A stretch of 64,000 nucleotides of DNA from the IMG/VR virus record IMGVR_UViG_3300002348_000001, positions 19,979 through 83,978 of that record; one strand, 5' to 3'. Both the position numbers and the translations under genes were made by a program. Source of the stretch: a virus. Taxonomy: Duplodnaviria > Heunggongvirae > Uroviricota > Caudoviricetes. The first letter of the stretch is position 1. The number at the start of each line of letters is the position of its first letter. The notes beneath the pieces were generated by a model, which saw only the letters and a program-made list of their open reading frames with translations, was not told the DNA's origin and did not search any database. Below are positions 8,004 through 48,348 of the stretch, piece after piece.

Positions 8004-11000
8004 TTATAGGTTTTTAATAGCTTTTACAATAGATCCATTTCTAGATTTTATTTTAGCCCCATATTTCCCAGTGTCCTCTTTTGAAGATTTTTTAGTGTCC
8101 ACAGTAGTGGGTCTAGCAAAAGGGTTTCCTTCTAAATTAAACTGTGCAGGATCATTGTAATTAATAGCCTGCCCTTTAGGTCCAAATCTATAATTATATA
8201 GATTTTCGTATATGCCTAATGTTTTGTTTTCTAATCTGTTTTTAGCCATTTTGTCAGAAATAGAACTAAGAGCTGCTTGAGCTTGTTGTTTTGTATTTGT
8301 TTTTGCTTGAGCTTGTCTAGTGTATTGTTGATCGTAAAGAGTTAGATTTTTTAACTGAGCATCATTTAGTGTTCCTCTGTTCCTATTATAAACACCTGCT
8401 CTTTCCGCTTGGTTCATTCTAAATTGATTGCCTAATACACCAGAATTAGCTCCGTATTTTTGAGCAGCTAAAGCTGATAGAGCAGCTGGATTATTTCTCA
8501 CTGTCCTTTGAATTGCATTAAAATCTGCTTGATTAGCATTTAATTGATCCTGTAGAGAAATATCAAATGGTTGTTCTAGTAGTGGTTTGTAAGACTGGGC
8601 CTGAACAGGTTCTAATTGATTTGTTGCTAAAGCATATTGCTCTGCCATTAATTGAGAAGGATCTAATGGTTCTTGGTCTGTTGGTCTAAACAAAGGATTT
8701 AAATTAGATATTGCTGACTCTGCCAACCCTCTCCAGTTAAATTTTCCTTTTTGCTTTTCTTCAGGAACTGCTTTTCTAAAATCTATTGGTCCTCCTTTTG
8801 GTTCAAACCCTCCTAATGTTGGTCTTTGTCTATCAATAATAGTTTCTGCAGGAGTTCTTTTTATATCAATAAGATCGTTCATTATTTTATGATATGGGCC
8901 CACTTTCTTATCAGTAGCCAATCTCATAGCAATATTCTTTTTTTCCTCAAAAGTTTTGCCTTTTTTCAAAGCATTTTTTACATCCTCTGCATCTTGTCCA
9001 CCATAGTTTTCTAAACGAGAAATAAGATCTCTAGCTTTAGTAGGGTTGTTAAAAGCTTCTTTTACTTTAGGAATCCATTTAGAAGAATAACTATCTTTAT
9101 TCCAAAGCTCATTTCCAGAAACAGGCATTGCATTATAATCAATATATCCTGGTTGTTTTGCTCTTATTAAAAACTCTTCTGTACCATCTTGAGCTGTCTG
9201 TAGTTTAGCTCCAAACTTAGCTTTTTTAATTTGTCCTTTAGCAAGAGCATCAGACTCCAGTCCTAATTCTTCTGCTGTATCAAGAATTGCATTTTGCACT
9301 TGAGCTGCTGTTTGTTTTTTCTGAGCTATATTTTTTAATTTCATATCTGCACCAATTAAATTTGCTTGTAAAGCATTCATTTCTAATCCGTCAAAAGGAG
9401 TGTAAACATCTAAATTGTTCACTCTTTCTGTAGACTTATCTATAATTTTATTTTGTTTAGCTTCTGTTTTGGAAATATCATTAATGTAATTCTTAAACTT
9501 CTTCCCTTTAGCTTTTGGATCTTGTAAAGCTTCTACACCATATTTAGGGATTTGCATATTTCCATATACCACCATGCTTTGTTCACCACCATCTTCCATC
9601 TTAATAGCTGGTTCACCTCTTTCCACTTCTACAGGGTTATCGCCATATGTCACCCCTATACCAGATTGTCCTTTTCCATTTGTTTCCTCATGTGATTGTC
9701 CTCTGAACATCACAGTTTCTCCTGTTCCAGGGAGATATGGATTTTGAGAAATGGGTTCTGCATACCCACCCCAATGGGTTTGAAGCTCACCTCCCATTTG
9801 AAACTGATCTTGAGGGAATGTATAATTTTGTGTAATATGTCCTCCAGAGCGTAATGTATTCATTGTTCTATCTGGAGCAAAAAGATCTTTAACATCATAT
9901 TCACCAAATTTAGCTAAGACTTGTGGTTGCCAATCATTTGATACATATCCTCCATCTTCCATGAAAGAAGAATATTGGTTTTGAATATTTTGTCCTGTTT
10001 GTTGGTAAGCAGCTCTTAGTGTATTATCTTCAGCTTGTTTTTGAAATCCTCTAAGTTTTTCTGCATCTTGTGCTCCACCTAAAGCATTTCCAGCAACACC
10101 TCCTAAAAGTCCCCCCACCATTCCACCAACGGGCCCAAAAAACGCTGTTCCTATTGCAGATCCTACACCTTTACCTATAGAAGCTTGGCCAGAACTTTGG
10201 AAATAATCTCCAAACTCTGCTGTAGGAATATGTCCACCATGTCTAAATTGTTTTACATCTGTATCATTTAAAGGCTCATATCCAAGATCATCATAAAGAG
10301 TACCAGGATTGTACATGTTTTGTATCTCTGTTTGGTTACCACCAATTTGTGCACCAAACTCAGCCGCTAAGAAATTACTTCCGCCACCATAACTAGGAGC
10401 CATTTGTTCTGGTTGTAAAATAGTATCTTCAGGTCTAACATATTTACGTCTCACTTTTTCTGGACGCATTTCAGCAGCTTGTGCTGTAAGACCTGTCACT
10501 TGAGCATATTGATCAGCTTTTTTAATATTTTGTTTCTGCTGTTTCATTTCACCAAAACCTTTCATTATATCTCCTGCAGAATCAACAAGGCCAAGCCCTG
10601 CTGCACCAAGCCCTTTTGCAAATCCTGCGCCACCTTTTCCTAAAGCTCCTGCAGGTCCTACATTCATAATTTTTCCAGCTGTTCCAGATCCTCCAAAAAG
10701 ATCTAATGCTTGACTACCCAATTGATTACCACTCATTCCACCAAAATTTCCAGACCCTCCTGTAAATATACTACCAAGTCCACCTAGAATATTTCCTATT
10801 TGACCTGCTTGTTGATTATCAGTTCCTCCTTTAGCTCCTAATAAAGAACTTCCTATACCTGTTAAGGCATTCATTCCCATTTGGGCTTTTTTTATTTTCT
10901 TACCTGTTTTAGCCTTGGCCATATCATTATAATTTGTAAAGTTTGTTAATTGGTCTAATTTTTTTAGTTGACCTCTGTCTTGAATAGATCCACCGTCTTC

Positions 11001-12170
11001 CATTTTCTTTTTAGAATTCTTTTGTATAAATTCTTTTCCATAATAAGGAACACCCATTCTTCCATAATCTTCTGGTTTAATAAATACAGTGTCTCCTTGA
11101 GGTGTTTCATATCCAACAAAAGCTCCAGGACCATTAGCATAAGGTGTTGAGGCATATACAGGAGTTCCTTGATTATAATTAGTTTGGGGAGTAGAAATTG
11201 TTGATTGAACAACTGGTAAAGACTCTTGTTTAGTTTCTTCCTTTTTAATGTCTTTTTTTGGTTCAGATTTTTTATAGATAATAGGTTGTAATGGTTTTTT
11301 ATAGATTAAGTTAGGGTCTTCTCTTTGAGGATATATCATATTTGTAGGATATATACCAGTATTCAATGATTTGTTTAAAAGATTAACTCTTTCTTTAAAG
11401 TTCTTAGGAGAACCATATGAATACCCAGACATCTCCTTAGTACTATTTATAGCTTCTATTATATCTTTTTTAGAGACTTTTGTCTTTCCCCAATTTTTAT
11501 CAGGTTTATAATCTTTTACATCATACTCATCACTATTATACTCAACAAAAGCTTTTTTACCTCTATTATATAGATTTAAACTATCAGTATAAGCTCTAAG
11601 TCTTGAATCATTAGGATTGTCTGTAAATATAGGAGTGCGACCTCCTTTTTGCATCATTGGATATTCTATTACAGAATCTCCTTCATATACATAATCTTGG
11701 TTTGGATACATCATTTGTGTATCTCCTGTATTGCTTACACCTAAAACAGGATAGTTTACACCTTGCATGGTTATTTCATTGGAAGGTATTTCTGTTATTT
11801 TTCCTGGATGAGCCCATTGTCCTCTTGGGTCTTTTATTATTTTAGAGCCTTTCTTGCTTATAGTTTTTGGTCTGAAATCAAGACCTTCTTGATAGAATTT
11901 CATTTCCTTACCATTCTGCGCACTAGCTTTTGTTTTCTTAGCATAAGGACCATTACTAGGAGCAGGACTATTTGTACGTGCATACATCATTCCTACAGAA
12001 CCAGGAAGATTGCCACCCATTTGAAACTGTCCCCCCCATGCAGGAGAATAATTACGTCCAATAGTGTTATACCCATCTCCTACAAAATTTGGAGATAGGT
12101 TAATAGAATAATCGTTATAGTTTAACTCTTTATCCTTTTTTACTTTCTTTTGTATAGGTTTCTTTGCCAT
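8004..12170 (-). CDS. Large Gly-rich virion protein (1388 aa); possible tape-measure or ejection/internal protein
   Basis: 1388-aa ORF with basic N- and C-termini and a long central Gly/Ala/Ser low-complexity region (GGLGSIFTGGSGNFGG...GAGFAKGLGAAGLG). Its stop abuts the start of the next gene. Confidence 0.8.
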   Translation of the reverse strand: MAKKPIQKKVKKDKELNYNDYSINLSPNFVGDGYNTIGRNYSPAWGGQFQMGGNLPGSVGMMYARTNSPAPSNGPYAKKTKASAQNGKEMKFYQEGLDFRPKTISKKGSKIIKDPRGQWAHPGKITEIPSNEITMQGVNYPVLGVSNTGDTQMMYPNQDYVYEGDSVIEYPMMQKGGRTPIFTDNPNDSRLRAYTDSLNLYNRGKKAFVEYNSDEYDVKDYKPDKNWGKTKVSKKDIIEAINSTKEMSGYSYGSPKNFKERVNLLNKSLNTGIYPTNMIYPQREDPNLIYKKPLQPIIYKKSEPKKDIKKEETKQESLPVVQSTISTPQTNYNQGTPVYASTPYANGPGAFVGYETPQGDTVFIKPEDYGRMGVPYYGKEFIQKNSKKKMEDGGSIQDRGQLKKLDQLTNFTNYNDMAKAKTGKKIKKAQMGMNALTGIGSSLLGAKGGTDNQQAGQIGNILGGLGSIFTGGSGNFGGMSGNQLGSQALDLFGGSGTAGKIMNVGPAGALGKGGAGFAKGLGAAGLGLVDSAGDIMKGFGEMKQQKQNIKKADQYAQVTGLTAQAAEMRPEKVRRKYVRPEDTILQPEQMAPSYGGGSNFLAAEFGAQIGGNQTEIQNMYNPGTLYDDLGYEPLNDTDVKQFRHGGHIPTAEFGDYFQSSGQASIGKGVGSAIGTAFFGPVGGMVGGLLGGVAGNALGGAQDAEKLRGFQKQAEDNTLRAAYQQTGQNIQNQYSSFMEDGGYVSNDWQPQVLAKFGEYDVKDLFAPDRTMNTLRSGGHITQNYTFPQDQFQMGGELQTHWGGYAEPISQNPYLPGTGETVMFRGQSHEETNGKGQSGIGVTYGDNPVEVERGEPAIKMEDGGEQSMVVYGNMQIPKYGVEALQDPKAKGKKFKNYINDISKTEAKQNKIIDKSTERVNNLDVYTPFDGLEMNALQANLIGADMKLKNIAQKKQTAAQVQNAILDTAEELGLESDALAKGQIKKAKFGAKLQTAQDGTEEFLIRAKQPGYIDYNAMPVSGNELWNKDSYSSKWIPKVKEAFNNPTKARDLISRLENYGGQDAEDVKNALKKGKTFEEKKNIAMRLATDKKVGPYHKIMNDLIDIKRTPAETIIDRQRPTLGGFEPKGGPIDFRKAVPEEKQKGKFNWRGLAESAISNLNPLFRPTDQEPLDPSQLMAEQYALATNQLEPVQAQSYKPLLEQPFDISLQDQLNANQADFNAIQRTVRNNPAALSALAAQKYGANSGVLGNQFRMNQAERAGVYNRNRGTLNDAQLKNLTLYDQQYTRQAQAKTNTKQQAQAALSSISDKMAKNRLENKTLGIYENLYNYRFGPKGQAINYNDPAQFNLEGNPFARPTTVDTKKSSKEDTGKYGAKIKSRNGSIVKAIKNL

Positions 12171-13036
12171 TATTTATAACTAATTTGAGCAGGTGCCACA
12201 ATAAATTGAGAGATTAAATGAGCATCAGCTCTATCATCTAATATATGTCTTATTTTTAATTCTTTAGCTCTTAATGGTTCCTTTTTAAAGCTTCTCTTAG
12301 AATAGTCCATATTAGGTTGGTTAATTATTTTATCCACTGATAAAGACTCACATCCTGTTGAGAACAAAGGTATAGATTTATTCTTCACTAAAGACCAAAA
12401 TGTATTGTATTGGTAGAAGTTATCAGACTTAGTAAAAGTTATAGTTTTACTTTCTGCATTATATAAAGGATATTTTAAATACTCTTTTAAGTTGTTTTTT
12501 GGTTTAGGCACTAGTTCTAAAAGTCCTGTGCTCTGTTGACCATTGTATAAAACAGCTTTATTAAAATAAATATTGTTTATTTCTATTTTAGCATTGTTAT
12601 TAAACACCCCATCTGGAATAGGAAGATATTGATACACTTTTGTATAATCCTTAACATTCTGTAATATCTCATCTTGAAATTGATAAGAAAATGGATATTC
12701 AATTACATACGGTTGTATATCTCCGTAGTAAATATTATAAATTAATGTATTAGTTAAATGTCTCCATAAAGAAGCTGTGTTTGTATTTGTAAATTTTATA
12801 TTAGCCACCTCATCCAAATAAAGCTGTTTAACAGGAATATTAATTCTTGCTTTACATTTTCCTGTGGATTGTATTACAATAACAGTAACAGCATCATCAA
12901 CACTTGCTGGAAACCCTGCAATAAGATTGTCCTTAGAAACATCAGTTCCCAATACATTCCCATAGTTATCTGAGATTGTAAAAGGACCTGTTCTAGTACC
13001 AGCCTTTGTTAATTTTATGAGTATTGTTTTAGACAT
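12170..13036 (-). CDS. Tail-associated hypothetical protein (288 aa)
   Basis: ORF translationally coupled between the 2229-aa and 1388-aa genes. Confidence 0.7.
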   Translation of the reverse strand: MSKTILIKLTKAGTRTGPFTISDNYGNVLGTDVSKDNLIAGFPASVDDAVTVIVIQSTGKCKARINIPVKQLYLDEVANIKFTNTNTASLWRHLTNTLIYNIYYGDIQPYVIEYPFSYQFQDEILQNVKDYTKVYQYLPIPDGVFNNNAKIEINNIYFNKAVLYNGQQSTGLLELVPKPKNNLKEYLKYPLYNAESKTITFTKSDNFYQYNTFWSLVKNKSIPLFSTGCESLSVDKIINQPNMDYSKRSFKKEPLRAKELKIRHILDDRADAHLISQFIVAPAQISYK

Positions 13037-13062: not shown

Positions 13063-16000
13063 TTAAGGGGCAACATTTAAATGTAAGACTGCCACTCTTT
13101 GTCTAGTTTGTCCGTTAAACTGTGTAAAAGAACCTACAACGTACACTAAATTCTGTGCTTCATTTATTTTTATACTCCTAACAAAAGTTGAAGAATCTGT
13201 GTAAAATCCAGTGGAAATAGGCCAAGAGTTATCATATGTTCCGTTTGAATTTATTTTTACAATTCCTCCAGAAGTGTTGCCATTGTAACTTGTAAACTTA
13301 CCTCCTATAACTATTTTACCATTAGACTCCCCACTTAATGCATATCCTAAATTAGAAGTGGATAGATAAGAACCAAATCCAGATCCAGCATTAGTTTTAA
13401 ATGTATTATTAATTGTGTTATCTGTATTAATTTTAACAGGAACAATCCAATAATTTGGGGAGCCAGTATTATTTTCTCCTACCGTTATCACTGAATTATC
13501 AATAGTTTGATGTGTAACTGTTGGGTAAGCACTTGTACTAGGGTCTAAATTATAATTCACTATAAAACTTCCTGTGGAACTTATCTTAAATATTTTTGAT
13601 ATTACTGTTCCATTATAGTTATTAATATTGGCCCCAGTAATTATAATATCTCCATTATTTAAAACTTCTACTGAACCAGCCTCGTTATTAATCCCAGTGC
13701 CTGTTACTAAAGTGGTATCTATACCTCCATTTGTATCCACTCTAACAATACGATTGGCAGAAGAACCATTATAATTAGTAAATGCTCCTACTATTACTAT
13801 TTTACCGTCAGTTTGAATATCAATATCTCTCACTTGTCCTGTAAATCCTGTACCATATACAAAAGAAGAATCTATTGTACCGTCAGAATTTAATCTAATT
13901 ATACTATTGGCAACAGTACCATTATAACTTGTAAAAGCTCCTCCAACTAAAATTTTATTATCTGATTGTATTTTAACTTTATACACTCTTCCATTAAATC
14001 CACTTGTTAATCCAGTGAATGTTGGGTCAGGAACCCCTGAAGAATTAAATCTAATTATTCTATTATATGTAACACCATTGTAAGCAGTGAAATCTCCACC
14101 AACAACATAATTATTATTAGAATCATAATCCACTGTCCATGCGTCATTATTTAATCCTGTACCACTGTTAAAACTAGTGAGTATTTCAGCTGGTAATGTA
14201 GTGGTAGTAGTTGTAGTGCAACTTCCTTCACCATCTATTACAGTGTCTGGGCCAACATGCCAGCAAGTAGTTCCGTCATATATCCATTTATTATTAAATA
14301 GCAATACAGGAAATTCTAATGCTGGATCATAATAAACTGTACATCCTATTCCAAAACTACTTCCACAACTACTATAAACAGTTAATGATGAACCATAACA
14401 TCCAGGATCTGGAATACAACCTTCATTATATCCAGCTATTGCTTCACAACAAGTGTCCTGTCCACCATAACCAACACAAATACAGTTACTAAGATCTGTT
14501 ACAACCACTGAAGTAGTTGCTGCAACTGTATAAACACCGCTTAATACAGTGGTTACAGGAGCTGCTGTAGCTGTTATTATTGAAAAATCAGTAATTGTTC
14601 CACCGCTAACATTTGTAGATATACCATCAACTGTTATTGTAATAGTTGAACTATCAACAGGAACATTAAAACCCCTAAAATTTGAAGTATTCCACGCAGT
14701 GAATGTAGTATTCTCTTTCACTGCTAAACTACCACTTGATGGTGTATCAACATCTAAAGTTTGAAGGTTACCACTAACATCTGTGTAATCTATGTATAAA
14801 CGACCATCAACAAAATATTCCCCTGCTAAATCTGCTTCAGATAAAGACCAATTTATTGTAGAAGGAGGAGGACATGTAAAGAAATTATACAACATTCCTT
14901 CTGGTCCAATTAAATAATAATTTGTACCATCGCTATAATATAATGTACCACCGTTAAAAGGAATTGTACATGCTGGATCAGTATAAAAAATAGTGAGATC
15001 TACTGTTAAACTAGATGTAGTGGTATAATATGTTGTTGTTGGGCCTTCAGGATATAAAGAACAAGCTTCAAACTCTGTTCCACCTGAAGGTCCTAATACT
15101 ACAGGATAGTTACTACAATTAATTTCTATAGATTTTACCGTTATGTTAGAAGGATTGTTATGGTCTCTAACAGCAATATACCAAGTTCCATTATCCACCT
15201 CATCGTTTTGTAAATGAGTGACATTAAGACTAAACACTCCATTTATTGCTCCACTTTCACTAGAATAAGGGAAAGAGTTTATATCATATTCTCCACTACC
15301 GCCAGTAATATATCCTTCTGGATAAACTCCTGTAGGGCCCACTGAGATTCTTCCACAACCATTTCCTACACATATACAAGTGTAAACAAAAGAAAAATCA
15401 ATTGGTATTGGAACTGTTGTAGTAGTAGTGGTTGTAGGAGGAAGTTCTTCAAAAGCAAGAGCTTCAAGATCGCATCCTCCATTTATTCCTGAATAAAAGA
15501 AATTATTTTCTGCTATGTAAAAGTTTGGAATATAACTGTGAAAGCTTACCCAACTTTTGGTGTTCATGTTAAAAGAAAGTGTCCAAGATTTATTACAGAA
15601 ATAATTTGTATCAGACAGACTCACTACATCTTTAAATGTAACACCATTTACAACTCTTTCTACATAAAAATCTTTTGTTGCTTCGTCATATTTAATATTT
15701 GAACTTTGAGGAATATAATCAAATTTTGATATAATCACTCTATCAAACTTACTATCATACACTCCATGTAACCCAATTCCATTAAAGTGATTGTCTGTGT
15801 CTACTGTTGGATAGTATCTGAGTATTTCAAAAGCTAAATGATCCGTAAAAAACTTATTCATTCCAAGCCCAAAAGCAGAAAGATCTGATGCCTGGTTACC
15901 AGTAATTAAAAATATTTGTCCTCTTTTAGCATCAACAGTAATTTGTCCTTGAGGAATTTTTAATAAAAATTTATTTTGACTTCCTACATATCCAAGATCT

Positions 16001-19000
16001 GTTTCAGCAAAATCAATTGGAGGAGCTGATTTAAATAATGTATCATTACCTAAATAAGCTGCTTGTGGATTGCTTGTTTGTACAGTAAGCATTGTATTGT
16101 AAAGCAAAGACTTGTTTTCAAATCTTGCTAATACAGCTTTATTTTGAATACCATCTAATGATGTTAGTTTACCAAAATTTTGTGGAAAATCAAAATAAGA
16201 AGTTGCACTATAGTTCAACCAGTTATTCACTCCTGAGTTTGTAAAACTCTCCTGTTGATCAGAATATATTGCCCTGAAAGGAAAAGTTGTAAAACACACT
16301 TTAGGTTCCCAGTTATTAGGAAGATGCGAAAAAAGATTTTCCTTGTTTTGTTTTGAATATGTTACGTTGTAATAATATGTATTATCTTGAGCAATAGGTA
16401 CAACTGACTCTTGTAGCCAGTTATCAGGAATACCTGTACTTACATGTGGATAAAAATCTCCTTCTTGGTTGTTAAATGCTTGTCTAAGGTCTACGTTAAT
16501 AGAAGATTCCACATAAAAGTATGGAATACCATAAGCATATAAATACATTTTTCCATCATAATAAGTTCTATTAGGATTTACAACAACAGGAGGCCCAGGT
16601 GTTGGTGCAGGAAGTTGACTATTAGGGCAATCAAAATTGTGAGCTTTAATAGATATAATATTCTTCATTACAGTGCCTCCTGTTGGAGTGTAGTCACTAA
16701 GAATAGATCTAGAAGAAAACCAATATTTAGGGTAGGCTATATTTCCCACCTCATCATAAAATATATCTGAATCATCTGGAGCATTCACTCTATCATCTAT
16801 AAATAAAGGAAGTTTAGTTTTAAAAGCAAACTTTCCTATAAAAGTGTCCCCACCAAAAACTGTATCTATTGAAGGCTGCCCATTAAGAATATTATCTATT
16901 TCTATATTTCTTTGGAAACCTGTATCAATTGTGTCATATGAATATATTTGTCCCCATTGGTTAACAAATATATTTTTCATTGATCCGTAATAAGAGATAA
17001 CATCAATATGCCTTTCCTCGCTAGGAGTGGAACATTTATCATCATCAGAAGCTACAAATCTAGAATTATCTGTAAAAAGACTCACCCCTACAGGAGCAAT
17101 AGAAGGACTTTTATCTGGAAATGGAAGAGGTGTTACAACATTACCATTTCTAGTTTCTATAGTTTTTAAAAATACAGAAGACTCTCTATTATAATTATTT
17201 ATATTTATACCATTAGTTTCTCCTATAGCCTGTACTCCCTCAAAAATATACTGAGCAACCGCCAGAGGTCTTTGTTTCACTCCTACATTATTGATTATAT
17301 CAGCACTATAATCATAGCTAGCAATAGAGTTAAAAGAATATGCGTAATTTCTTCTTGTAATACCGTTAATATAAATTTGTAGATAAGCCTGATAAGCAGT
17401 GAATAAAACTAAAGGATCTAATGTTCCTGTTATAGAAGCTATTTCTGTACTAGAGTTTAATGCATCCTTTTGAGCCTCTTTTGTTAATAATTTATATAAA
17501 GCATGTTCTCTAACTTGTACAAAATGAGCCTTTCCGCCACCAAGAATAATATTTTCTAATTTAAGGACATTCCCTAAATAAGGTTGTCCAAATAAAGTTT
17601 CTGGAGAATTAAACACATGTCTGTATTTAGAATCATCAGAAGAAAATCCCTCTAATTCAGGTGTAATGTAATAATCTGATAATGGTATAGTGGTAGACTC
17701 TGTAAATGTTACAGTGCCTGTTAAAGCTATTGGGGTGGATAGAGATGTAATTGTAATAAGAGTACCAGCAGTCATGTTAGCTGTAATAGGTGTATTTGTG
17801 TAACAATCTGTATATTGATATGTACCACTTACACTAGGTGTGCCTGTATACACCTTACACTCATCTTTGTAGGCATTACTTTTTGAAAGTATAAAAGGAT
17901 CTTTTCTAAGATCGTTATATGGGTAGTTTGGATAATAATAGTCTGTCCCCTCTCTATTGTATTTCCCTACATTCCTTAATATCCCTTTAGATATAATGGA
18001 TTTGTTTGTACTTCTATCTCCTCTAACAATTTTAAAAGCAACAATACTTTCTTTTTGTTCTTTTGTTAAATTAGATGTATATATTAATTGAGAAACTTGT
18101 TGAATATCTATCCTCACTCCTATTGGGAATATAGCATCATTTTGCATCACTGGTGAAAAACCTGGTCCTAATGAATAAACAGGACTTTCAAATATAGGAC
18201 TAACTAATACATCAGGAAACTTATGGTGCCTAATTGGTTGATCTGCTAATTCACCCCATACATCTATATTACAAGGATATTTTTCTGTAGATTCCCAATA
18301 AGCAAACTCTCCATATTGATATGGACCTTTATATGTAATTTTATTTAAAGCTGCTAAGTATTCAGGATTAAAACCTGTAACAGATGCTGTATTATAAATT
18401 TTCCAATAAGCACTATATCCTACACCACCAGATTCAAATTCAGGGTCTCCAACAAAATCAGGGTTTGTTGTAGGCACTAATGGTTCAGAAGTTTCATTAA
18501 ATGTAATAGCTCTTCCAGGAATATGAAACCCATCTGTTTGTTTTCCATTTTTTAATAAAAAAACAATTTCAAATGCATACACTTCATCCCTTAAATATCC
18601 TCTATAATTAGTGGCATTTAACTCATCAGCGTATGTTTCAGTGTTAGGAATTCTATAAGATTGCCATTTAAGATCTATTTGATTAGCAATTTGTTGATAG
18701 TTAATTCTATCAATAGATGTAAGACCGTCCCACACTAGTACATCCTGCACTGTTGTAAGATCTTCTGCTATTTCATAATAAGGAAATTTTTCAAAAATGT
18801 CATTAATTGTAAGTCTAATTTGTGTTACATTTTGACCAGTGTAGGTAATCTCTCTACTAACATTATTTATAAAATATGTTCCAACTAATTCTACGGAAGA
18901 AATAGCATTAACGGTTTTTATCACTGCTAAATTAAAATATTTAAACAGTCCTGATATATCTAAATTAGAGACATTAATTACAATAGATCTTCCCACCGTA

Positions 19001-19752
19001 TAGTTAAAATTTAATGTAGTTTTAGCTGCATCAAAAATAGGTGTTGGATTAGTAACAGAATAATATGATGTATATGAATTCCCATTAGCATCACAATATT
19101 GTATTGCAAATTGATATGTTCCAGCTTGCAACTCTCCACCTGTATTAATATCCACCACTTCTAGTTGTGGAATTTCAAAGTTGGGTTGAACATTTAATTT
19201 ATTACAATCTAGTTCTTTTGTTTCTGTTATTCCACATAAATTAATATTTCCACCTAAAGCTATTGGGTAGGATAAAATATATGGTATGTTTTCAATATCT
19301 AAATATCTTCTTGGATTTAAACCATCCGTCCAATAAATTTCAGTGGTACAATTAGTTATTTTATGTACCACTTTATGAATAGGGTTGTCTATATTAAAAT
19401 TTAGACAAGTGGCAGATACTAATGTATGGTAGGTACAATCATTATTATTCATATACCCAATCTCAGAAGCTCCTGAAGATGGATTTGTAAGAAAGAATAT
19501 ATGTTTATTTTTTTCTGGAATAAAATGTGTCCCAATAAGATGATAGTCTTGGGGAAAGTTTAAGCATAGTTCATTTCCTGGTTCATTTTGATAGTTAACA
19601 CTGTCACTATCAAAATTCTCTATAGTAGCATTAAGAGCATAAGAAAGCTTACCCTTTGCTATTTGATTAGCAGAGCTATCCATATCAAGACCAATTCTTG
19701 CTAAGTTATACTCTTCTCTTATATTACCAGCGGATTGATTATTTTCAGCCAT
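13063..19752 (-). CDS. Giant tail fibre/adhesin-like protein (2229 aa) with C-terminal delta-60-type beta-propeller repeats, Cys-rich modules and poly-Thr linkers
   Basis: 2229-aa ORF. C-terminal about 50-aa tandem repeats (VGGDFTAYNGVTYNRIIRFNSSGVPDPTF / VGGAFTSYNGTVANSIIRLNSDGTIDSSF / VGAFTNYNGSSANRIVRVDTNGGIDTTL). Poly-Thr linkers (PPTTTTTTTVPIP; SCTTTTTTTLPAE). Repeated CICVG(N/Y)G Cys-rich motifs. Confidence 0.85.
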   Translation of the reverse strand: MAENNQSAGNIREEYNLARIGLDMDSSANQIAKGKLSYALNATIENFDSDSVNYQNEPGNELCLNFPQDYHLIGTHFIPEKNKHIFFLTNPSSGASEIGYMNNNDCTYHTLVSATCLNFNIDNPIHKVVHKITNCTTEIYWTDGLNPRRYLDIENIPYILSYPIALGGNINLCGITETKELDCNKLNVQPNFEIPQLEVVDINTGGELQAGTYQFAIQYCDANGNSYTSYYSVTNPTPIFDAAKTTLNFNYTVGRSIVINVSNLDISGLFKYFNLAVIKTVNAISSVELVGTYFINNVSREITYTGQNVTQIRLTINDIFEKFPYYEIAEDLTTVQDVLVWDGLTSIDRINYQQIANQIDLKWQSYRIPNTETYADELNATNYRGYLRDEVYAFEIVFLLKNGKQTDGFHIPGRAITFNETSEPLVPTTNPDFVGDPEFESGGVGYSAYWKIYNTASVTGFNPEYLAALNKITYKGPYQYGEFAYWESTEKYPCNIDVWGELADQPIRHHKFPDVLVSPIFESPVYSLGPGFSPVMQNDAIFPIGVRIDIQQVSQLIYTSNLTKEQKESIVAFKIVRGDRSTNKSIISKGILRNVGKYNREGTDYYYPNYPYNDLRKDPFILSKSNAYKDECKVYTGTPSVSGTYQYTDCYTNTPITANMTAGTLITITSLSTPIALTGTVTFTESTTIPLSDYYITPELEGFSSDDSKYRHVFNSPETLFGQPYLGNVLKLENIILGGGKAHFVQVREHALYKLLTKEAQKDALNSSTEIASITGTLDPLVLFTAYQAYLQIYINGITRRNYAYSFNSIASYDYSADIINNVGVKQRPLAVAQYIFEGVQAIGETNGININNYNRESSVFLKTIETRNGNVVTPLPFPDKSPSIAPVGVSLFTDNSRFVASDDDKCSTPSEERHIDVISYYGSMKNIFVNQWGQIYSYDTIDTGFQRNIEIDNILNGQPSIDTVFGGDTFIGKFAFKTKLPLFIDDRVNAPDDSDIFYDEVGNIAYPKYWFSSRSILSDYTPTGGTVMKNIISIKAHNFDCPNSQLPAPTPGPPVVVNPNRTYYDGKMYLYAYGIPYFYVESSINVDLRQAFNNQEGDFYPHVSTGIPDNWLQESVVPIAQDNTYYYNVTYSKQNKENLFSHLPNNWEPKVCFTTFPFRAIYSDQQESFTNSGVNNWLNYSATSYFDFPQNFGKLTSLDGIQNKAVLARFENKSLLYNTMLTVQTSNPQAAYLGNDTLFKSAPPIDFAETDLGYVGSQNKFLLKIPQGQITVDAKRGQIFLITGNQASDLSAFGLGMNKFFTDHLAFEILRYYPTVDTDNHFNGIGLHGVYDSKFDRVIISKFDYIPQSSNIKYDEATKDFYVERVVNGVTFKDVVSLSDTNYFCNKSWTLSFNMNTKSWVSFHSYIPNFYIAENNFFYSGINGGCDLEALAFEELPPTTTTTTTVPIPIDFSFVYTCICVGNGCGRISVGPTGVYPEGYITGGSGEYDINSFPYSSESGAINGVFSLNVTHLQNDEVDNGTWYIAVRDHNNPSNITVKSIEINCSNYPVVLGPSGGTEFEACSLYPEGPTTTYYTTTSSLTVDLTIFYTDPACTIPFNGGTLYYSDGTNYYLIGPEGMLYNFFTCPPPSTINWSLSEADLAGEYFVDGRLYIDYTDVSGNLQTLDVDTPSSGSLAVKENTTFTAWNTSNFRGFNVPVDSSTITITVDGISTNVSGGTITDFSIITATAAPVTTVLSGVYTVAATTSVVVTDLSNCICVGYGGQDTCCEAIAGYNEGCIPDPGCYGSSLTVYSSCGSSFGIGCTVYYDPALEFPVLLFNNKWIYDGTTCWHVGPDTVIDGEGSCTTTTTTTLPAEILTSFNSGTGLNNDAWTVDYDSNNNYVVGGDFTAYNGVTYNRIIRFNSSGVPDPTFTGLTSGFNGRVYKVKIQSDNKILVGGAFTSYNGTVANSIIRLNSDGTIDSSFVYGTGFTGQVRDIDIQTDGKIVIVGAFTNYNGSSANRIVRVDTNGGIDTTLVTGTGINNEAGSVEVLNNGDIIITGANINNYNGTVISKIFKISSTGSFIVNYNLDPSTSAYPTVTHQTIDNSVITVGENNTGSPNYWIVPVKINTDNTINNTFKTNAGSGFGSYLSTSNLGYALSGESNGKIVIGGKFTSYNGNTSGGIVKINSNGTYDNSWPISTGFYTDSSTFVRSIKINEAQNLVYVVGSFTQFNGQTRQRVAVLHLNVAP

Positions 19753-42471: not shown

Positions 42472-42479
42472 AAAGCTTT

Positions 42480-42972
42480 AAAACAACTAATGGTTAATAC
42501 TAGACAGTGACATAACAAGGGACGTGCGTAATCCTTCGCAAAAGGCCTACCCTCGCACATGTGTTACCTCACAGTCTAAGATGTGAGTGGTTTAGATTAA
42601 CTGCAAAGTCGACATTAAAATCAAGTTGGACAACTAAGGTTAAGCCAAAGATAACTTGTGTATCATTGCATCTCTTAGAAGGCATTAGTTGTTTTTACAC
42701 ACTCAAGTGGCGAAAAGTATAGACGCTAAACTAAGACGGTGAGAATGGAATGGGAAAAGGTTAAGATATACAAGTTGGGTAAACATCAGACACTTAACAC
42801 ATTCCAATAAAACTGATGAAAATAATGAGTCATGTCCTTGTTAAAAAGTGCCAACTAACATCAGTTATAATTCATGCAGGTGAAATCCCTGCCTTGAGTG
42901 CAAAATCCTGCTTACTTGAGGTGTTTACACCAATAATAGATAAGGTGGTTGACTGATGGAAAGACATCATAT
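42480..42972 (+). ncRNA. ORF-free, GC-elevated, highly self-complementary region; candidate structured non-coding RNA(s) or decayed tRNA-like elements
   Basis: No ORF of 60 aa or more on either strand except a low-complexity antisense one at the edge. Nested hairpins GTGCG..(CCTT-CGCAA-AAGG)..CGCAC, CTCACA-GTCTAAGA-TGTGAG, GGAATGG..GGTTAAG..CTTAAC..CATTCC, GCAGG-TGAAATC-CCTGC. A D-arm-like segment GTGGCGAAAAGTATAGACGC resembles that of the adjacent tRNA-like gene. Confidence 0.4.
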
Positions 42973-43075
42973 GGTCAGGTGGCGGAATTGGTGAGACGCT
43001 AAATATTTAGGGAAGTCATAGCTAAGTATTTAATATTGTGTACAAATAATACAGGTTCGAATCCTGTCCTGACTG
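42973..43075 (+). tRNA. tRNA-like gene, Leu-type (type II) D-arm, atypically long (103 nt) with an 11-bp hairpin inserted between D-arm and T-arm
   Basis: GGTCAGG-T-G-GCGGAATTGGTGAGACGC (near-identical to a bacterial tRNA-Leu D-arm). Canonical T-arm ACAGG-TTCGAAT-CCTGT. Acceptor 3' strand CCTGACT pairs with the 5' strand (G-U at 1:72). The 51-nt interval contains the hairpin TAAATATTTAG-(11 nt)-CTAAGTATTTA. A possible UAG anticodon loop (TTTAGGG) lacks a canonical stem. Confidence 0.5.
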
Positions 43076-43094
43076 CTTATTAAAAATAAATCGT

Positions 43095-43487
43095 ATGGAA
43101 ATAAAACCAAATTACGTAACATTTGAACAAGCTAAATTACTTAAAGAAAAAGGATTGGTTGTTAAATCAGATAGATATTGGGTTAAAATGACTGAAGATT
43201 CATATACTGATATGACTGATTGGCGATTAGAAGATTTGGATAGTGATATTGGGATTGGTGGCAATCTTGTAATTACCAAATATCAACAATGGCAAGTTGT
43301 GGAATTTTTAAGAATTAATTACGGTATTTGGGTTGGTGTTACAATGTATATTAATCATGATGGTAGATTTTATTCAGCCAATATTCAGAATAATGACAAT
43401 AAACATCAATCATTTAATGGACATAAATCACCACAAGAAGCATATTCAGCAGCATTTGATCATATATTAAATAATAATTTAATTTAA
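43095..43487 (+). CDS. Hypothetical protein (130 aa) located between the two tRNA-like genes
   Basis: ORF; no motif recognised. Confidence 0.55.
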   Translation: MEIKPNYVTFEQAKLLKEKGLVVKSDRYWVKMTEDSYTDMTDWRLEDLDSDIGIGGNLVITKYQQWQVVEFLRINYGIWVGVTMYINHDGRFYSANIQNNDNKHQSFNGHKSPQEAYSAAFDHILNNNLI

Positions 43488-43566
43488 AAACATTATTTGT
43501 TGTACACCATTAAAACGTTGGGTGATTAAATAATCTACGTCCAAAAGATAGCAACAAATATTTTAT

Positions 43567-43653
43567 TAGAGAGTGGTGAAATTGGTTAGACGCTATACTG
43601 TTGCCTTAAACAAGCTACGGTGAATTTTACAGGTTCGAATCCTGTCTCTCTAA
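43567..43653 (+). tRNA. tRNA-like gene (87 nt, type II-like length); anticodon arm not canonically foldable by hand (possible UAA loop CTTAAAC)
   Basis: TAGAGAG-T-G-GTGAAATTGGTTAGACGC D-arm, T-arm ACAGG-TTCGAAT-CCTGT identical to the other tRNA, acceptor 3' strand CTCTCTA complementary to the 5' end. Confidence 0.5.
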
Positions 43654-43677
43654 CTTTGTTAGTTTTAGTTTTAATAC

Positions 43678-43708
43678 GGGGGTGCATTTCTATGCTGCTC
43701 CCTTTTTT
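43678..43708 (+). terminator. Hairpin plus T-run after tRNA-like gene 2
   Basis: GGGGGTGCATTTCTATGCTGCTCCC imperfect hairpin followed by TTTTTT. Confidence 0.45.
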
Positions 43709-43766
43709 ATTATTAGGTAGCTTTAAGCATAATATATATTTATTAATTTAAAAAAAAACAAAAATC

Positions 43767-43982
43767 ATGTCAAAAAGTAAAAAAACCGTAACAATCACTG
43801 ATGTTAGAGAAGCTTGCCAAGATATTGGTGATAAATTAAAAGACAATTTTGACAAAACAAAAGATTTTAAAGCTGCTCAAGGATCTGTTCAAGCTTATTC
43901 AGCTGCTATTTCTGCAGCTAAAACACAGCTAATTTACAAAAAGCTCACAGGAACACCTATTGAAATTGAATTTCTTAAATAA
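43767..43982 (+). CDS. Hypothetical small protein (71 aa)
   Basis: Preceded by the CAAAAATCATGTCA motif variant. Confidence 0.5.
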   Translation: MSKSKKTVTITDVREACQDIGDKLKDNFDKTKDFKAAQGSVQAYSAAISAAKTQLIYKKLTGTPIEIEFLK

Positions 43983-47335: not shown

Positions 47336-47671
47336 ATGGCAAAGTTAACAAAAAAAGATAGACACGAATTTTACAAAAAACTGTTAGATTTTACAGTGGA
47401 AGATCCAAATCTTGATAATGGAATGTGTTTTTATATACATCGTATAATAATTGACAATTATAAATCAAATACTAAAATTAGAAAATTATATAGAGAATGG
47501 AATCACTCTACTACTTATTTTTTAATAGAATGTTTACCAGAATTGTACCATAAAGCTCCTATATTATGGAAAAATTTTCCAAAAGGAAGATATTGGTACT
47601 CATTACATAGTAAAAAATATTGGAATATGAGAATAAAACACATTTTTGACTGCGTAAATGAAACAGCATGA
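47336..47671 (+). CDS. Hypothetical protein (111 aa), paralog of 46854..47129
   Basis: See 46854..47129. Confidence 0.55.
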   Translation: MAKLTKKDRHEFYKKLLDFTVEDPNLDNGMCFYIHRIIIDNYKSNTKIRKLYREWNHSTTYFLIECLPELYHKAPILWKNFPKGRYWYSLHSKKYWNMRIKHIFDCVNETA

Positions 47672-48348
47672 GTATATCAGTTAAATACCCCATAATTGGG
47701 GCTAAAGTGGTAAGAGGAAAAGATTGGTGTTATGATGAACAAGATGGAGGAGAAGGAAAAACAGGTGTTATAGTAGATAAATTAAAATATGATTGGGTAA
47801 GAGTATTATGGGAAAATGGTAATAAAGATGATTATCGTATAGGAAATGAAGGTAAATACGACCTCTATTTTGCCACAGAAAAAGATGCACTCCTTCAAGA
47901 AGCTATGGAAAGATTTCCAAGTGGATGTTCTTATGAAGATACAATGGGAAGTCATCATAAAAACATTAAATATAATTATCCATATTGGTGGTCTGAATCA
48001 AGGATAGCTTTAAAAGAAGGTAAGGGATTGGTTTATGATAATGGTAAGTGGGCTGTACGTACTGATGTTCCTGTAAAAGAAGAATACGCAAAAATTATTA
48101 AACATAAAACAATAAATACAGATCAAAATGGCGAAAAATCAAAAAGTAATCCCAGCAGCAATGGGTCCACAAACACAACAAATGTTGAATGCAGTACCAA
48201 ACGAGAAAATGGAATTAAAGTACAAAGACTTAATTTCAAAATCCCAACAACAGTTAGAAGCGGAGGAGCTGGACTTAAAAGTTCAAATTGCAAAGTCAGA
48301 TTTGGAAGTAACAATAGCTACCACCAAAAAAGACTTAGCATCAGCTAG
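47668..48348 (+). CDS. Hypothetical protein (up to 226 aa); N-terminal domain paralogous to 48528..49748. The 3' 70-75 codons look low-complexity and overlap 48128..48478 out of frame
   Basis: VVRGKDWCYDEQDGGEGKTGVIV and YDNGKWAVRTDVPVKEEY mirror KVGDKVRVLK...GEICIVFYI and YYNGKWADIANVPRETEK in the 406-aa protein. The tail after about 48125 (NPSSNGSTNTTNVE...) is compositionally odd. Confidence 0.5.
   Translation: MSISVKYPIIGAKVVRGKDWCYDEQDGGEGKTGVIVDKLKYDWVRVLWENGNKDDYRIGNEGKYDLYFATEKDALLQEAMERFPSGCSYEDTMGSHHKNIKYNYPYWWSESRIALKEGKGLVYDNGKWAVRTDVPVKEEYAKIIKHKTINTDQNGEKSKSNPSSNGSTNTTNVECSTKRENGIKVQRLNFKIPTTVRSGGAGLKSSNCKVRFGSNNSYHQKRLSIS

Follow-up and report, generated by a model that had tools for sequence, protein, structure and literature searches.

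A tRNA-Leu-like phage element with a hairpin in place of its anticodon arm, and the constant-frame family it fits

What is a tRNA-like gene for if the arm that should read codons has been replaced? The question arises at positions 42973-43075 (+ strand) of the 64-kb window, the whole stretch of DNA that we analysed, which comes from a bacterial tailed phage of crAss-like lineage with related contigs binned with Bacteroidota. An earlier note on this DNA offered three readings of the element, here called E2: an intron-containing tRNA, a tRNA-derived decoy or mimic, and a pseudo-tRNA. The decoy or mimic comes nearest, in that E2 is best described as a tRNA-derived, non-decoding RNA gene; the other two are both unlikely. 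We propose, and regard as probable though far from assured, that E2 belongs to a multi-copy phage gene family whose constant frame, derived from tRNA-Leu, lends a variable structured insert the end processing and stability of a tRNA, and whose two frame halves act as recombination joints.

The E2 element and its fold

E2 is a tRNA-shaped RNA gene of 103 nt whose frame is that of a class II tRNA of Leu type and whose middle is non-canonical. The 5' half of the frame (42973-42999), read directly from the sequence, comprises the acceptor 5' strand GGTCAGG (42973-42979), U8 and G9, and the D-arm GCGG-AATTGGTGAG-ACGC at 42982-42999. The 3' half (43051-43075) comprises the T-arm ACAGG-TTCGAAT-CCTGT at 43051-43067, the acceptor 3' strand CCTGACT (43068-43074) and the discriminator G43075 (G73). 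The acceptor strands form 7 bp with a G1-U72 wobble, T42972 precedes the element and C74 lies at 43076. U8, A14, G18, G19 and the GTTCGAATC T-loop of the tertiary core are all there. The acceptor stem, Leu-type D-arm and perfect T-arm claimed in the earlier note are therefore in place, and its count of 51 nt between the D- and T-arms is exact (43000-43050).

These 51 nt fold into two hairpins. The first (43000-43032), which replaces the 5-bp/7-nt anticodon arm, is an A/U-rich helix of 11 bp, one of them U-G, between TAAATATTTAG (43000-43010) and CTAAGTATTTA (43022-43032), closed by the 11-nt loop GGAAGTCATAG (43011-43021). RNAfold places this hairpin, with its loop GGAAGUCAUAG, in both the minimum-energy and the centroid structure, in agreement with the long hairpin and 11-nt loop drawn by hand before; no homologue of the cargo, as we call the insert, was found, so that the helix has no support from covariation. 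The second (43033-43050) is a short variable-arm hairpin that pairs approximately 43035-43039 with 43046-43050 and ends in U48. The z-score of the fold is modest (-2.0 to -2.4).

The resemblance of E2 to tRNA exceeds chance. Rfam assigns it to the tRNA family with 39.8 bits against a gathering score of 29 (E = 6.5e-5 for both strands of the 64-kb window and 4227 families), the alignment taking up a 17-nt insertion in the anticodon loop, and within positions 42600-43800 no other RNA family matched at E <= 10. ARAGORN makes no tRNA call at E2 under default settings, and its intron mode reads E2 as tRNA-Leu(tag), for which it has to place a 14-nt 'intron' at a non-canonical site. Neither mode yields a canonical cloverleaf, which bears out the hand fold.

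E2 shares with canonical bacterial and phage tRNA-Leu the 7-bp acceptor, the Leu-type D-arm, the GUUCGAAUC T-loop, a variable arm and the U(-1), C74 and CCA-less context of the true tRNAs of these phages, but it lacks a 5-bp/7-nt anticodon arm with U33 and a purine at 37. We reject a canonical elongator tRNA-Leu on the 11-bp stem with its 11-nt loop, the silence of default ARAGORN, and the presence of G73 where A73 is needed (PMC2377443). E2 cannot decode: the helix in place of its anticodon stem exceeds the normal length by about 6 bp and closes a loop of 11 nt.

A constant frame around variable inserts

Scans of public viral contigs identify hundreds of elements that share a near-constant frame, with the consensus U(-1), (A/G)GTCAGG-UG-GCGGAAUUGGU(U)AGACGC ... 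ACAGGUUCGAAUCCUGU-CCUGACU, N73, C74 and a 5' half of AGTCAGGTGGCGGAATTGGT(T)AGACGC; part of this uniformity is built in, since most scans demanded exact frame motifs. The pattern AATTGGTNAGACGC-N(28-58)-GGTTCGAATCC, run over viral sequences, returned 55 viral loci, most of them with the identical acceptor AGTCAGG/CCTGACT and with unrelated middles, and scans with the 3' half only and with the D-arm only gave at least 119 and at least 120 stretches. The census comprises 273 unique elements with a median length of 103 nt. Cargos in the census range from 16 to 146 nt, and 237 of them fall into 199 sequence clusters, including 175 singletons. The elements are located on the coding strand among small ORFs of the early region, at local densities of up to 6-10 per 5-10 kb.

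E2 fits this pattern. Against the family 5' half, (A/G)GTCAGG-TG-GCGGAATTGGT(N)AGACGC, it carries GGTCAGGTGGCGGAATTGGTGAGACGC; against the 3' half, ACAGGTTCGAATCCTGT-CCTGACT-N73-C74 with U or C at -1, it carries ACAGGTTCGAATCCTGTCCTGACT-G-C after T42972; and its middle is element-specific and non-canonical, with other cargos at the same site in relatives. Membership of a family with constant frame and variable insert was not visible to the reader who wrote the earlier note.

The frame is under RNA-level selection, as its stems covary. In the D-arm-anchored set, a perfect 7-bp acceptor lies beside the T-arm in 139 of 154 hits, '100% paired' being an inflated figure where extraction itself demanded acceptor pairing. 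The same set contains 28 acceptor sequences, with double changes at 7 of 7 acceptor and 4 of 5 T-stem pairs, and its frame covariation score is 0.576, compared with 0.165 for shuffled and at most 0.09 for slid controls. Across the family U8 is present in 100%, A14 and A15 in about 90%, and U48, just before the T stem, in 87%. The acceptor reads AGTCAGG in about 64% of D-arm-anchored elements; such identity of the stems is higher than an RNA fold needs, and could alternatively reflect a sequence-specific protein partner or recent spread as a mobile element.

The immediate flanks resemble those of true tRNA genes. The same loci contain 266 true tRNAs, of which 184 are preceded by U(-1), 238 are followed by C74 and none has an encoded CCA; in the frame family U(-1) occurs in 81% and C74 in 98% of members, and the family shares with the true phage tRNAs an A-rich trailer and the absence of an encoded CCA. 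From this common context we infer that the elements may be processed, receive CCA and persist as stable RNAs. In the true tRNA-Leu genes of these phages the acceptor stems are different and follow the pattern GCCNNNG. A few frame copies have canonical-looking anticodon arms (Lys-UUU, Ile-UAU), so that the boundary to real tRNAs is not sharp.

The 3' half matched 23 times in 185,579 species genomes, always on contigs of metagenome-assembled genomes and mostly in Bacteroidota. None of these 23 matches is the tRNA gene of an isolate, and we reject an attP site or copy of a host tRNA. Searches of deposited phages by DNA similarity found no match to the region and no cultured member, and a query with the family consensus returned nothing but generic T-arm matches. 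Leptolyngbya phage Lbo-JY46 is the nearest cultured relative by terminase, and all tRNAs in its annotation are of normal length (71-84 nt). We found no description of the family in Rfam, deposited phage records or the searchable literature, and it is apparently undescribed so far.

E2 has neighbours of its own kind. E1 (42701-42900, + strand) has the acceptor ACTCAAG/CTTGAGT, the D-arm GCGA-AAAGTATAG-ACGC, the T-arm GCAGG-TGAAATC-CCTGC, G73 and a structured cargo of about 150 nt. This cargo is 88% identical to that of an element on a different frame at locus L041 (1982-2185, - strand), the only locus found in a search for homologues; of the 49 pairs predicted for the whole element, 7 differ between the two by compensatory changes, and the cargo is better conserved than the frame. 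E3 (43567-43653, + strand) combines the acceptor TAGAGAG/CTCTCTA with the same D- and T-arms; its middle is non-canonical and 36 nt long, and its discriminator is A. Rfam scores it as tRNA with 34.2 bits and a mismatched anticodon stem. Between E2 and E3, ORF130 (43095-43487, + strand) starts 20 nt past the end of E2. Its homologues in relatives also have a frame element upstream, with a different cargo each time (one element each in L079, L211, L214 and L301). The window and L211 are about 100% identical from the T-arm (43051) into ORF130, and their cargos and upstream DNA are unrelated. In L214 an RNA ligase gene lies near a frame element, which is not a general feature.

The inserts are hypervariable across elements, yet within one insert type they are conserved with compensatory changes, which we found inside cargo clusters. 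A frame together with its insert assorts independently of the flanks: when elements from different loci are paired, 114 pairs have only the cargo in common, 26 only the downstream flank and 33 only the upstream flank. Inserts are also swapped between identical flanks, as 5 such pairs have both flanks in common and different cargos. Cargo-like sequences lie in a frame in 245 cases versus 6 outside one, and one cargo is also found closed by a plain stem. The E2 cargo itself appears confined to this phage lineage: an exact 17-mer search for homologues matched only an unrelated coding gene, and the closest ORF130 relatives carry other cargos. Neither the E2 loop CTATGACTTCC nor the cargos of E1-E3 had an antisense target above shuffled controls in the 64-kb window, and for this reason a host RNA or protein is the likelier partner of the E2 insert. 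At the gathering threshold, Rfam found tRNA in 17 element-rich loci, plus GOLLD, tmRNA and freshwater-1 in L015, none of which is tied to a frame cargo; freshwater-1 was checked and lies outside any frame.

A proposed cassette mechanism and its competitors

We propose that the frame, made up of the acceptor stem, Leu-type D-arm, T-arm and the tertiary-core residues U8, A14, A15, G18, G19 and U48, would hold an insert at the location of the anticodon and variable arms. Judging from the genomic context, host tRNA maturation enzymes would cut each element from a polycistronic transcript, with RNase P at the 5' end and RNase Z or exonucleases together with the CCA-adding enzyme at the 3' end, and the tRNA-like fold would stabilize the freed RNA. 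The same cleavage may set the ends of neighbouring mRNAs, in which case the leader of ORF130 would begin at C74, 19 nt ahead of its AUG. The near-identical frame halves, about 25 nt each, could serve as DNA homology arms for the exchange of inserts and neighbouring genes between phages. Such an arrangement would be a natural counterpart to engineered tRNA scaffolds and tRNA-guide arrays.

Several of these steps would also be expected if the frame were all that functions. On that account the elements act as tRNA-like 'punctuation', at which RNase P and RNase Z would split the early polycistronic transcript into single mRNAs, and as recombination linkers, whose halves would promote module shuffling; the middles would be filler. 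The genomic layout is favourable to it, since the elements are packed tightly between small ORFs and a start codon commonly follows about 20 nt further 3'. Mosaic junctions located inside the frame, cargo turnover at syntenic sites and the lack of a conserved protein next door (the best protein cluster accompanies only 8 of 79 loci) point the same way. However, filler should shrink and drift, and what we observe are cargos of up to about 150 nt, the same cargo in unrelated contexts in the 114 pairs above, helices preserved by compensatory changes, an E1 cargo conserved above its frame and a cargo also known without the tRNA frame. We consider a purely frame-based function unlikely.

Alternatively, the elements might be non-decoding RNAs aminoacylated by host LeuRS, for use as an amino-acid donor, a synthetase or EF-Tu sponge, or a signalling mimic, with middles free to vary because LeuRS ignores the anticodon. 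Bacterial LeuRS depends critically on A73 and the tertiary core and does not need the anticodon arm to charge its tRNA (PMC2377443). In favour of charging are the bacterial tRNA-Leu type of D-arm, A73 in 90% of AGTCAGG-type members, and the conserved U8, A14, A15, G18, G19 and U48. Against this, E2 and E1 both have G73, A73 falls to 12 of 23 in divergent frames, and multiple copies per genome with different, conserved cargos would go unexplained. No transferase or other conserved partner gene is seen near the elements, and Pfam searches of the replication-module proteins in the window found no RNA ligase, CCA-adding enzyme or synthetase. This reading seems to us quite improbable.

As a decoy or sponge, an element would divert host defences directed at tRNA, for example nucleases of the anticodon arm or acceptor end and tRNA-modifying toxins: its tRNA body would attract the effector, and its altered anticodon region would resist or trap it. 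Phage tRNAs are known to counter anticodon nucleases. The faithful retention of the tRNA body with the anticodon region abolished, and the position in the variable early region of lytic phages beside small ORFs without known function, are consistent with such a role. A decoy nevertheless needs to mimic the targeted arm, which hundreds of unrelated middles do not, and the phages with frame elements also have full sets of normal tRNAs; we regard this possibility as very unlikely.

The intron-containing tRNA of the earlier note fares worse. If a 14-nt intervening sequence were removed, as in the ARAGORN intron-mode call, the junction would decide whether the product is tRNA-Leu(UAG), tRNA-Leu(UAA) or a suppressor with CUA or UUA; the first 5 bp of the hairpin (AAAUA/UAUUU) lie exactly at stem 27-31/39-43, a variable arm is present, and two frame copies elsewhere have canonical anticodon arms. 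However, the helix at 43000-43032 is continuous, so that the splice sites would be base-paired, and it has no bulge-helix-bulge (two 3-nt bulges and a 4-bp helix, usually at 37/38) as in introns of the archaeal or eukaryal type. The extra 14 nt are also much too short for self-splicing, where a group I intron of the cyanobacterial or plastid tRNA-Leu type has about 200 nt or more with a P1-P9 core, and no Rfam intron or ribozyme matches at E <= 10. We know of no tRNA-splicing endonuclease in bacteria, and this is the genome of a bacterial tailed phage. G73 is wrong for Leu, and large genes read through in the standard code with no sign of a need for suppression. Across the family, intron mode returns scattered, implausible anticodons, and many middles, for example a 4-bp stem with a tetraloop or a long single strand, leave no anticodon arm to restore. 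We regard splicing as highly improbable. A decaying pseudo-tRNA or chance tRNA-like sequence, which the non-functional anticodon arm and the miss by default ARAGORN might suggest, is scarcely tenable in view of a frame that matches the consensus of hundreds of elements with covarying stems, the 100% identity of the region across independent assemblies of this phage, and the Rfam E-value.

Known relatives in design and the meaning of the family

The cassette mechanism that we favour has a close parallel in human designs. Engineered tRNA scaffolds and polycistronic tRNA-guide RNA arrays replace the anticodon region with a structured RNA; in these, the ends are set by the tRNA enzymes of the host, the insert is protected by the fold and one transcript carries several units, whereas for the frame family such processing is predicted. 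Unlike these constructs, the family would be a natural one that evolves in phages, and its inserts sit in the anticodon and variable-arm region of a class II frame. The TMERs of murine gammaherpesvirus 68 and the mascRNA and menRNA of MALAT1 and NEAT1 likewise use tRNA-like modules as RNase P and RNase Z handles for small RNAs rather than for decoding. They are eukaryotic, however, depend on pol III or nuclear processing, place the functional RNA beside the tRNA-like unit instead of within it, and have no sequence relationship to the family.

Among bacterial RNAs, tmRNA and the Y RNA YrlA are non-decoding and join an acceptor and T-arm module to a different functional domain, and phage-encoded examples exist; frame-family cargos, by comparison, are short and hypervariable. 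tmRNA differs in lacking a D stem and in having a tag reading frame and pseudoknots, and neither the ARAGORN tmRNA search nor Rfam reported a tmRNA at E2; the same method did detect a real phage tmRNA in L015. In YrlA the termini form a Ro-binding stem and the tRNA-like module is internal, whereas the termini of E2 form an acceptor stem and tRNA is its only Rfam match; both identities are rejected. Phage T4 makes stable RNAs C and D (species 1 and 2) from its tRNA cluster, which are co-transcribed and co-processed with the phage tRNAs and are of unknown function. By description, they would resemble the frame elements as small stable RNAs that accompany phage tRNAs, and differ as single genes outside any multi-copy family of constant frame and variable insert.

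At the level of DNA, a comparable logic is seen in integron attC sites and in the promoter-stem-loop (PeSL) cassettes of T4-type phages, where short boundaries of conserved structure enclose or adjoin variable sequence, mark mosaic junctions and allow accessory modules to shuffle. attC sites act as folded single-stranded DNA with an integrase, and PeSLs are promoter-plus-terminator units; in the frame family an entire tRNA fold, covarying at the level of RNA, forms the boundary, and no recombinase dedicated to it is seen.

We tentatively suggest that freshwater Bacteroidota phages, including crAss-like ones, keep a natural 'plug-and-play' system for RNA expression, with a standard frame that tRNA-processing enzymes of the cell would recognize and hundreds of small structured RNAs, exchangeable between phages by way of the frame halves, that are perhaps aptamers, decoys or regulators directed at the host or rival elements. 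This would be an RNA-cassette system, similar in logic to integron gene cassettes, for non-coding RNAs.

If our reading is true, many small RNAs of phages escape tRNA finders or are given a wrong label by them. Default ARAGORN calls just 43 of the 273 elements, many with abnormal loops and with scattered anticodons; E3 appears as 'tRNA-Ser(act)' in default mode and as 'Gly(gcc)+10-nt intron' in intron mode, and other members as Ala, Pro, Tyr and so on. Phage tRNA counts, and inferences on codon usage and recoding drawn from them, are contaminated by such elements, which a dedicated covariance model could catalogue. The family would provide a natural precedent for the tRNA scaffolds of biotechnology, in which each cargo is a candidate functional RNA with pre-defined boundaries. 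It would also offer a concrete mechanism for module exchange and mosaicism in the hypervariable early regions of phage genomes.

A tRNA-Leu-like element and its family

We find that E2, the element at window 42973-43075(+), has the anatomy that an earlier note had described from inspection: acceptor, Leu-type D-arm, T-arm, a 51-nt spacing between the two arms and a long hairpin within it. The acceptor is GGTCAGG/CCTGACT with a G1-U72 wobble, the D-arm is of tRNA-Leu type (U8, G9, then GCGG-AATTGGTGAG-ACGC), the T-arm reads ACAGG-TTCGAAT-CCTGT and the discriminator is G. The predicted fold of the inter-arm stretch is an 11-bp hairpin (43000-43010/43022-43032, one U-G pair among them) that closes an 11-nt loop, and a short variable-arm hairpin lies 3' of it. 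Because this helix is ~6 bp too long and closes an 11-nt loop, E2 cannot decode. The Rfam tRNA model scores it at 39.8 bits (E = 6.5e-5 over the entire window), but aligns it only by inserting 17 nt into the anticodon loop. ARAGORN does not call E2 at default settings and returns tRNA-Leu(tag) with a 14-nt 'intron' in intron mode; a canonical cloverleaf appears in neither mode, in keeping with the earlier hand fold. E2 lacks the defining features of a canonical tRNA-Leu, a BHB-intron tRNA, a group I-intron tRNA, tmRNA and YrlA, and has every sequence feature of the family defined in this analysis, in which a conserved acceptor, D-arm and T-arm (the frame) enclose a variable middle (the cargo).

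A scan of viral contigs for the D-loop and T-loop only, spaced 28-58 nt, returned 55 loci, most with a near-invariant frame, (A/G)GTCAGG-TG-GCGGAATTGGT(T)AGACGC ... ACAGGTTCGAATCCTGT-CCTGACT, around middles unrelated in length and sequence. Scans with the 3' half only and the D-arm only returned at least 119 and at least 120 stretches, respectively. Among the matches listed, 273 unique elements carry the (A/G)GTCAGG/CCTGACT acceptor (median length 103 nt); cargo length there is 16-146 nt (median 53), and 237 cargos fall into 199 sequence clusters, 175 of them singletons. Frames with other acceptors likewise bear cargos, of 50-170 nt. Some loci hold 6-10 elements within a few kb, amid small ORFs and true tRNA arrays. 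ARAGORN calls just 43 of the 273 by default; many loops are abnormal and anticodons scattered, and members with a tetraloop or long single strand where the anticodon arm belongs cannot decode. Two copies, U164 and U206, combine the AGTCAGG acceptor and family T-arm with canonical-looking anticodon arms (Lys-UUU, Ile-UAU); perhaps genuine tRNAs use this frame as well, or perhaps some cargos imitate an anticodon arm. The consensus T-loop is missing in ~12 of 250 paired ends. At L214 ~2240-2345(+), the family ends are kept (AGTCAGGTGACG...TTTTTGTCCTGACTAC) with no recognisable T-arm.

Conservation of frame and cargo

Covariation supports selection of the frame at the RNA level. When matches were anchored on the D-arm alone, with the 3' half left free, a perfect 7-bp acceptor lay directly 3' of the T-arm in 139 of the 154 listed, which include 28 distinct acceptor sequences and many T-stem variants. 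In a frame-only alignment, two-sided changes occur in 7/7 acceptor pairs and 4/5 T-stem pairs. The covariation score reaches 0.576; shuffles score 0.165 and slid partners at most 0.09. Because only pairing ends were extracted, the value of 100% paired cells follows from the method, whereas the variety of compensated pairs does not. The tertiary core is kept (U8 100%, A14/A15 ~90%, G18, G19, U48 87%).

Comparison of cargos provides evidence that they, too, probably matter, beyond the frame. Stem differences within clusters are compensatory (for example, GUGU/ACAC vs GCGU/ACGC), and cargo-like sequences occur 245 times inside the frame vs 6 outside. At L086:8457-8532, a cargo that lacks D- and T-arms and has nothing but a simple stem (TTAGTTCAAGAG...CTTTTGAGCTAA) to close it is ~82% identical to that of a 119-nt frame element (GGTCAGGTGGCGGAATTGGTT-GTCAAAGTATAAAAC...) in L004 and L026; framed and plain-stem occurrences of one cargo fit a frame that acts as carrier.

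Two further tRNA-shaped elements, whose middles are not tRNA-like, flank E2 on its own strand. E1 (42701-42900(+), 200 nt) has acceptor ACTCAAG/CTTGAGT, a D-arm, a T-arm and a ~150-nt middle, and is missed by ARAGORN and Rfam alike. The single homologue found for its cargo, at L041:1982-2185(-), is 88% identical despite different frames, with 7 of 49 predicted pairs across the whole element compensatory; we regard the E1 cargo as a candidate for a new structured RNA motif. The non-coding, GC-richer stretch 5' of E1 (42472-42700(+)) has a predicted perfect 13-bp long-range helix, AAAACAACUAAUG (~42480-42492) with CAUUAGUUGUUUU (~42684-42696), enclosing ~190 nt of hairpins; its overall fold z-score is only -1.4, and this stretch may represent a further RNA gene that lacks a tRNA frame. 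E3 (43567-43653(+)) shares its D- and T-arms with E2 and has acceptor TAGAGAG/CTCTCTA and a 36-nt middle. Right after it, at 43655-43715(+), a G+C-rich hairpin and T-run (GGGGGTGCA...GCTGCTCCCTTTTTTATT) look like the terminator of a unit running to E3 from ORF130, the small gene just 3' of E2; the hairpin is absent from the consensus scan listing. The 64-kb window holds no antisense target above shuffled controls for the E1-E3 cargos or the E2 loop.

Flanks, mosaicism and genomic setting

Family flanks show U(-1) in 81%, C74 in 98% and an A-rich trailer, and E2 has T42972, G73 and C74. Among 266 true tRNAs called by ARAGORN in the same loci, U(-1) occurs in 184 and C74 in 238, with an A-rich trailer and an encoded CCA in none. 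The shared signature suggests indirectly that the elements may mature through the tRNA machinery.

The family is also mosaic. Among element pairs drawn from different loci, 113 share cargo and both flanks, 114 share cargo only, with unrelated flanks, 33 share the upstream flank only, 26 the downstream flank only, and 5 share both flanks around different cargos. L211, whose ORF130 homologue is 72% identical to that of the window, matches the window at ~100% identity from the T-arm onwards, across the leader and into ORF130, with unrelated cargo and upstream DNA. From these counts and this junction, the frame halves coincide with recombination joints. ORF130 relatives in L079, L214 and L301 each come with a frame element bearing yet another cargo. 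No conserved protein lies next to the elements among the neighbouring genes of the loci compared. An RNA ligase gene (L214:1-319; PF09414 / PHA02142) lies ~1.7 kb 5' of a frame element, and none was seen among 10 window replication-module proteins scanned against Pfam. A MIB_HERC2-domain protein, an unusual phage domain, is encoded at window 47668-48348(+) (Pfam E = 1.5e-17), and a 426-aa MIB_HERC2 protein encoded at L211:968-2248 lies directly 5' of the frame element of that relative.

The phage genome is AT-rich (window ~31% GC), ~112.5 kb in full and recurrent across many lake metagenome assemblies, three of which are identical (100%) over 42601-43700. The structural arm is on the (-) strand: PHROGs identify its major head protein, portal and large terminase, and it also holds ORFs of 2229 aa (13063-19752) and 1388 aa (8004-12170) that recall the giant virion proteins known from crAss-like phages. 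From ~40 kb onward the (+) strand carries small ORFs and replication genes. The terminase is 41% identical to that of Leptolyngbya phage Lbo-JY46, ~33% to those of Cellulophaga phages phi17:2 and phi4:1 and ~28% to those of gut crAss-like phages. Under the standard code the large genes stay open throughout, so there is no hint that a suppressor tRNA is needed.

CrAss-type terminase or portal genes lie near elements in ~ten loci. Blastn of deposited phage genomes found no family member; a species-genome collection has the 3' half in 23 contigs, mostly Bacteroidota (Chitinophagia, Sediminibacterium, Flavobacterium, Saprospiraceae). We rejected an attP copy of a host tRNA because all 23 are MAG contigs and none of the matches is an isolate tRNA gene. 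One locus rich in frame elements, L015, also encodes GOLLD RNA (11836-12243, 317 bits), phage tmRNA (13561-13958, 98.7 bits) and freshwater-1 RNA (3348-3409, 87.7 bits); phages of this type carry an unusual wealth of non-coding RNA genes.

Proposed role and rival readings

The best-supported reading is that the frame is a tRNA-Leu-derived carrier for diverse small RNAs. The sequences show how the family is built, its covariation, the conservation of cargos, the flank signature and the mosaicism; processing, stability and a role for the cargo we infer. The frame would give early-operon small RNAs tRNA-type 5'/3' end formation and a stable fold. Cleavage would also set the ends of adjoining mRNAs, since the ORF130 AUG lies 20 nt 3' of E2, and both frame halves could double as homology arms in cassette exchange.

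A rival is that the elements are non-decoding RNAs charged by LeuRS, which requires A73 and the tertiary core and can dispense with the anticodon arm (PMC2377443); however, E2 and E1 have G73, and A73 occurs in just 12 of 23 divergent frames. A decoy against tRNA-targeting defences fits poorly with hypervariable middles. Punctuation or linkage by the frame alone is opposed by cargos that are long, conserved and compensated. The intron-containing tRNA that the earlier note entertained is argued against by the absence of a bulge-helix-bulge, an insert too short for group I, the lack of any Rfam intron or ribozyme match and a bacterial system. Its pseudo-tRNA option is made unlikely by a conserved, covarying frame.

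The closest functional likenesses of this putative carrier system are engineered tRNA scaffolds and tRNA-guide arrays, gammaherpesvirus TMERs and mascRNA, T4 stable RNAs, and tmRNA and YrlA; in DNA-level behaviour it recalls integron attC sites and T4 PeSL cassettes. The family is undescribed in Rfam 15 and in the literature searched, whose coverage is incomplete. We would class it with tRNA-like non-coding RNAs, and the probability that it forms a system apart is substantial. Its members also contaminate phage tRNA annotation, as E3 exemplifies: ARAGORN calls it Ser(act) by default and Gly(gcc) with an intron in intron mode, and its Rfam alignment has a mismatched anticodon stem.
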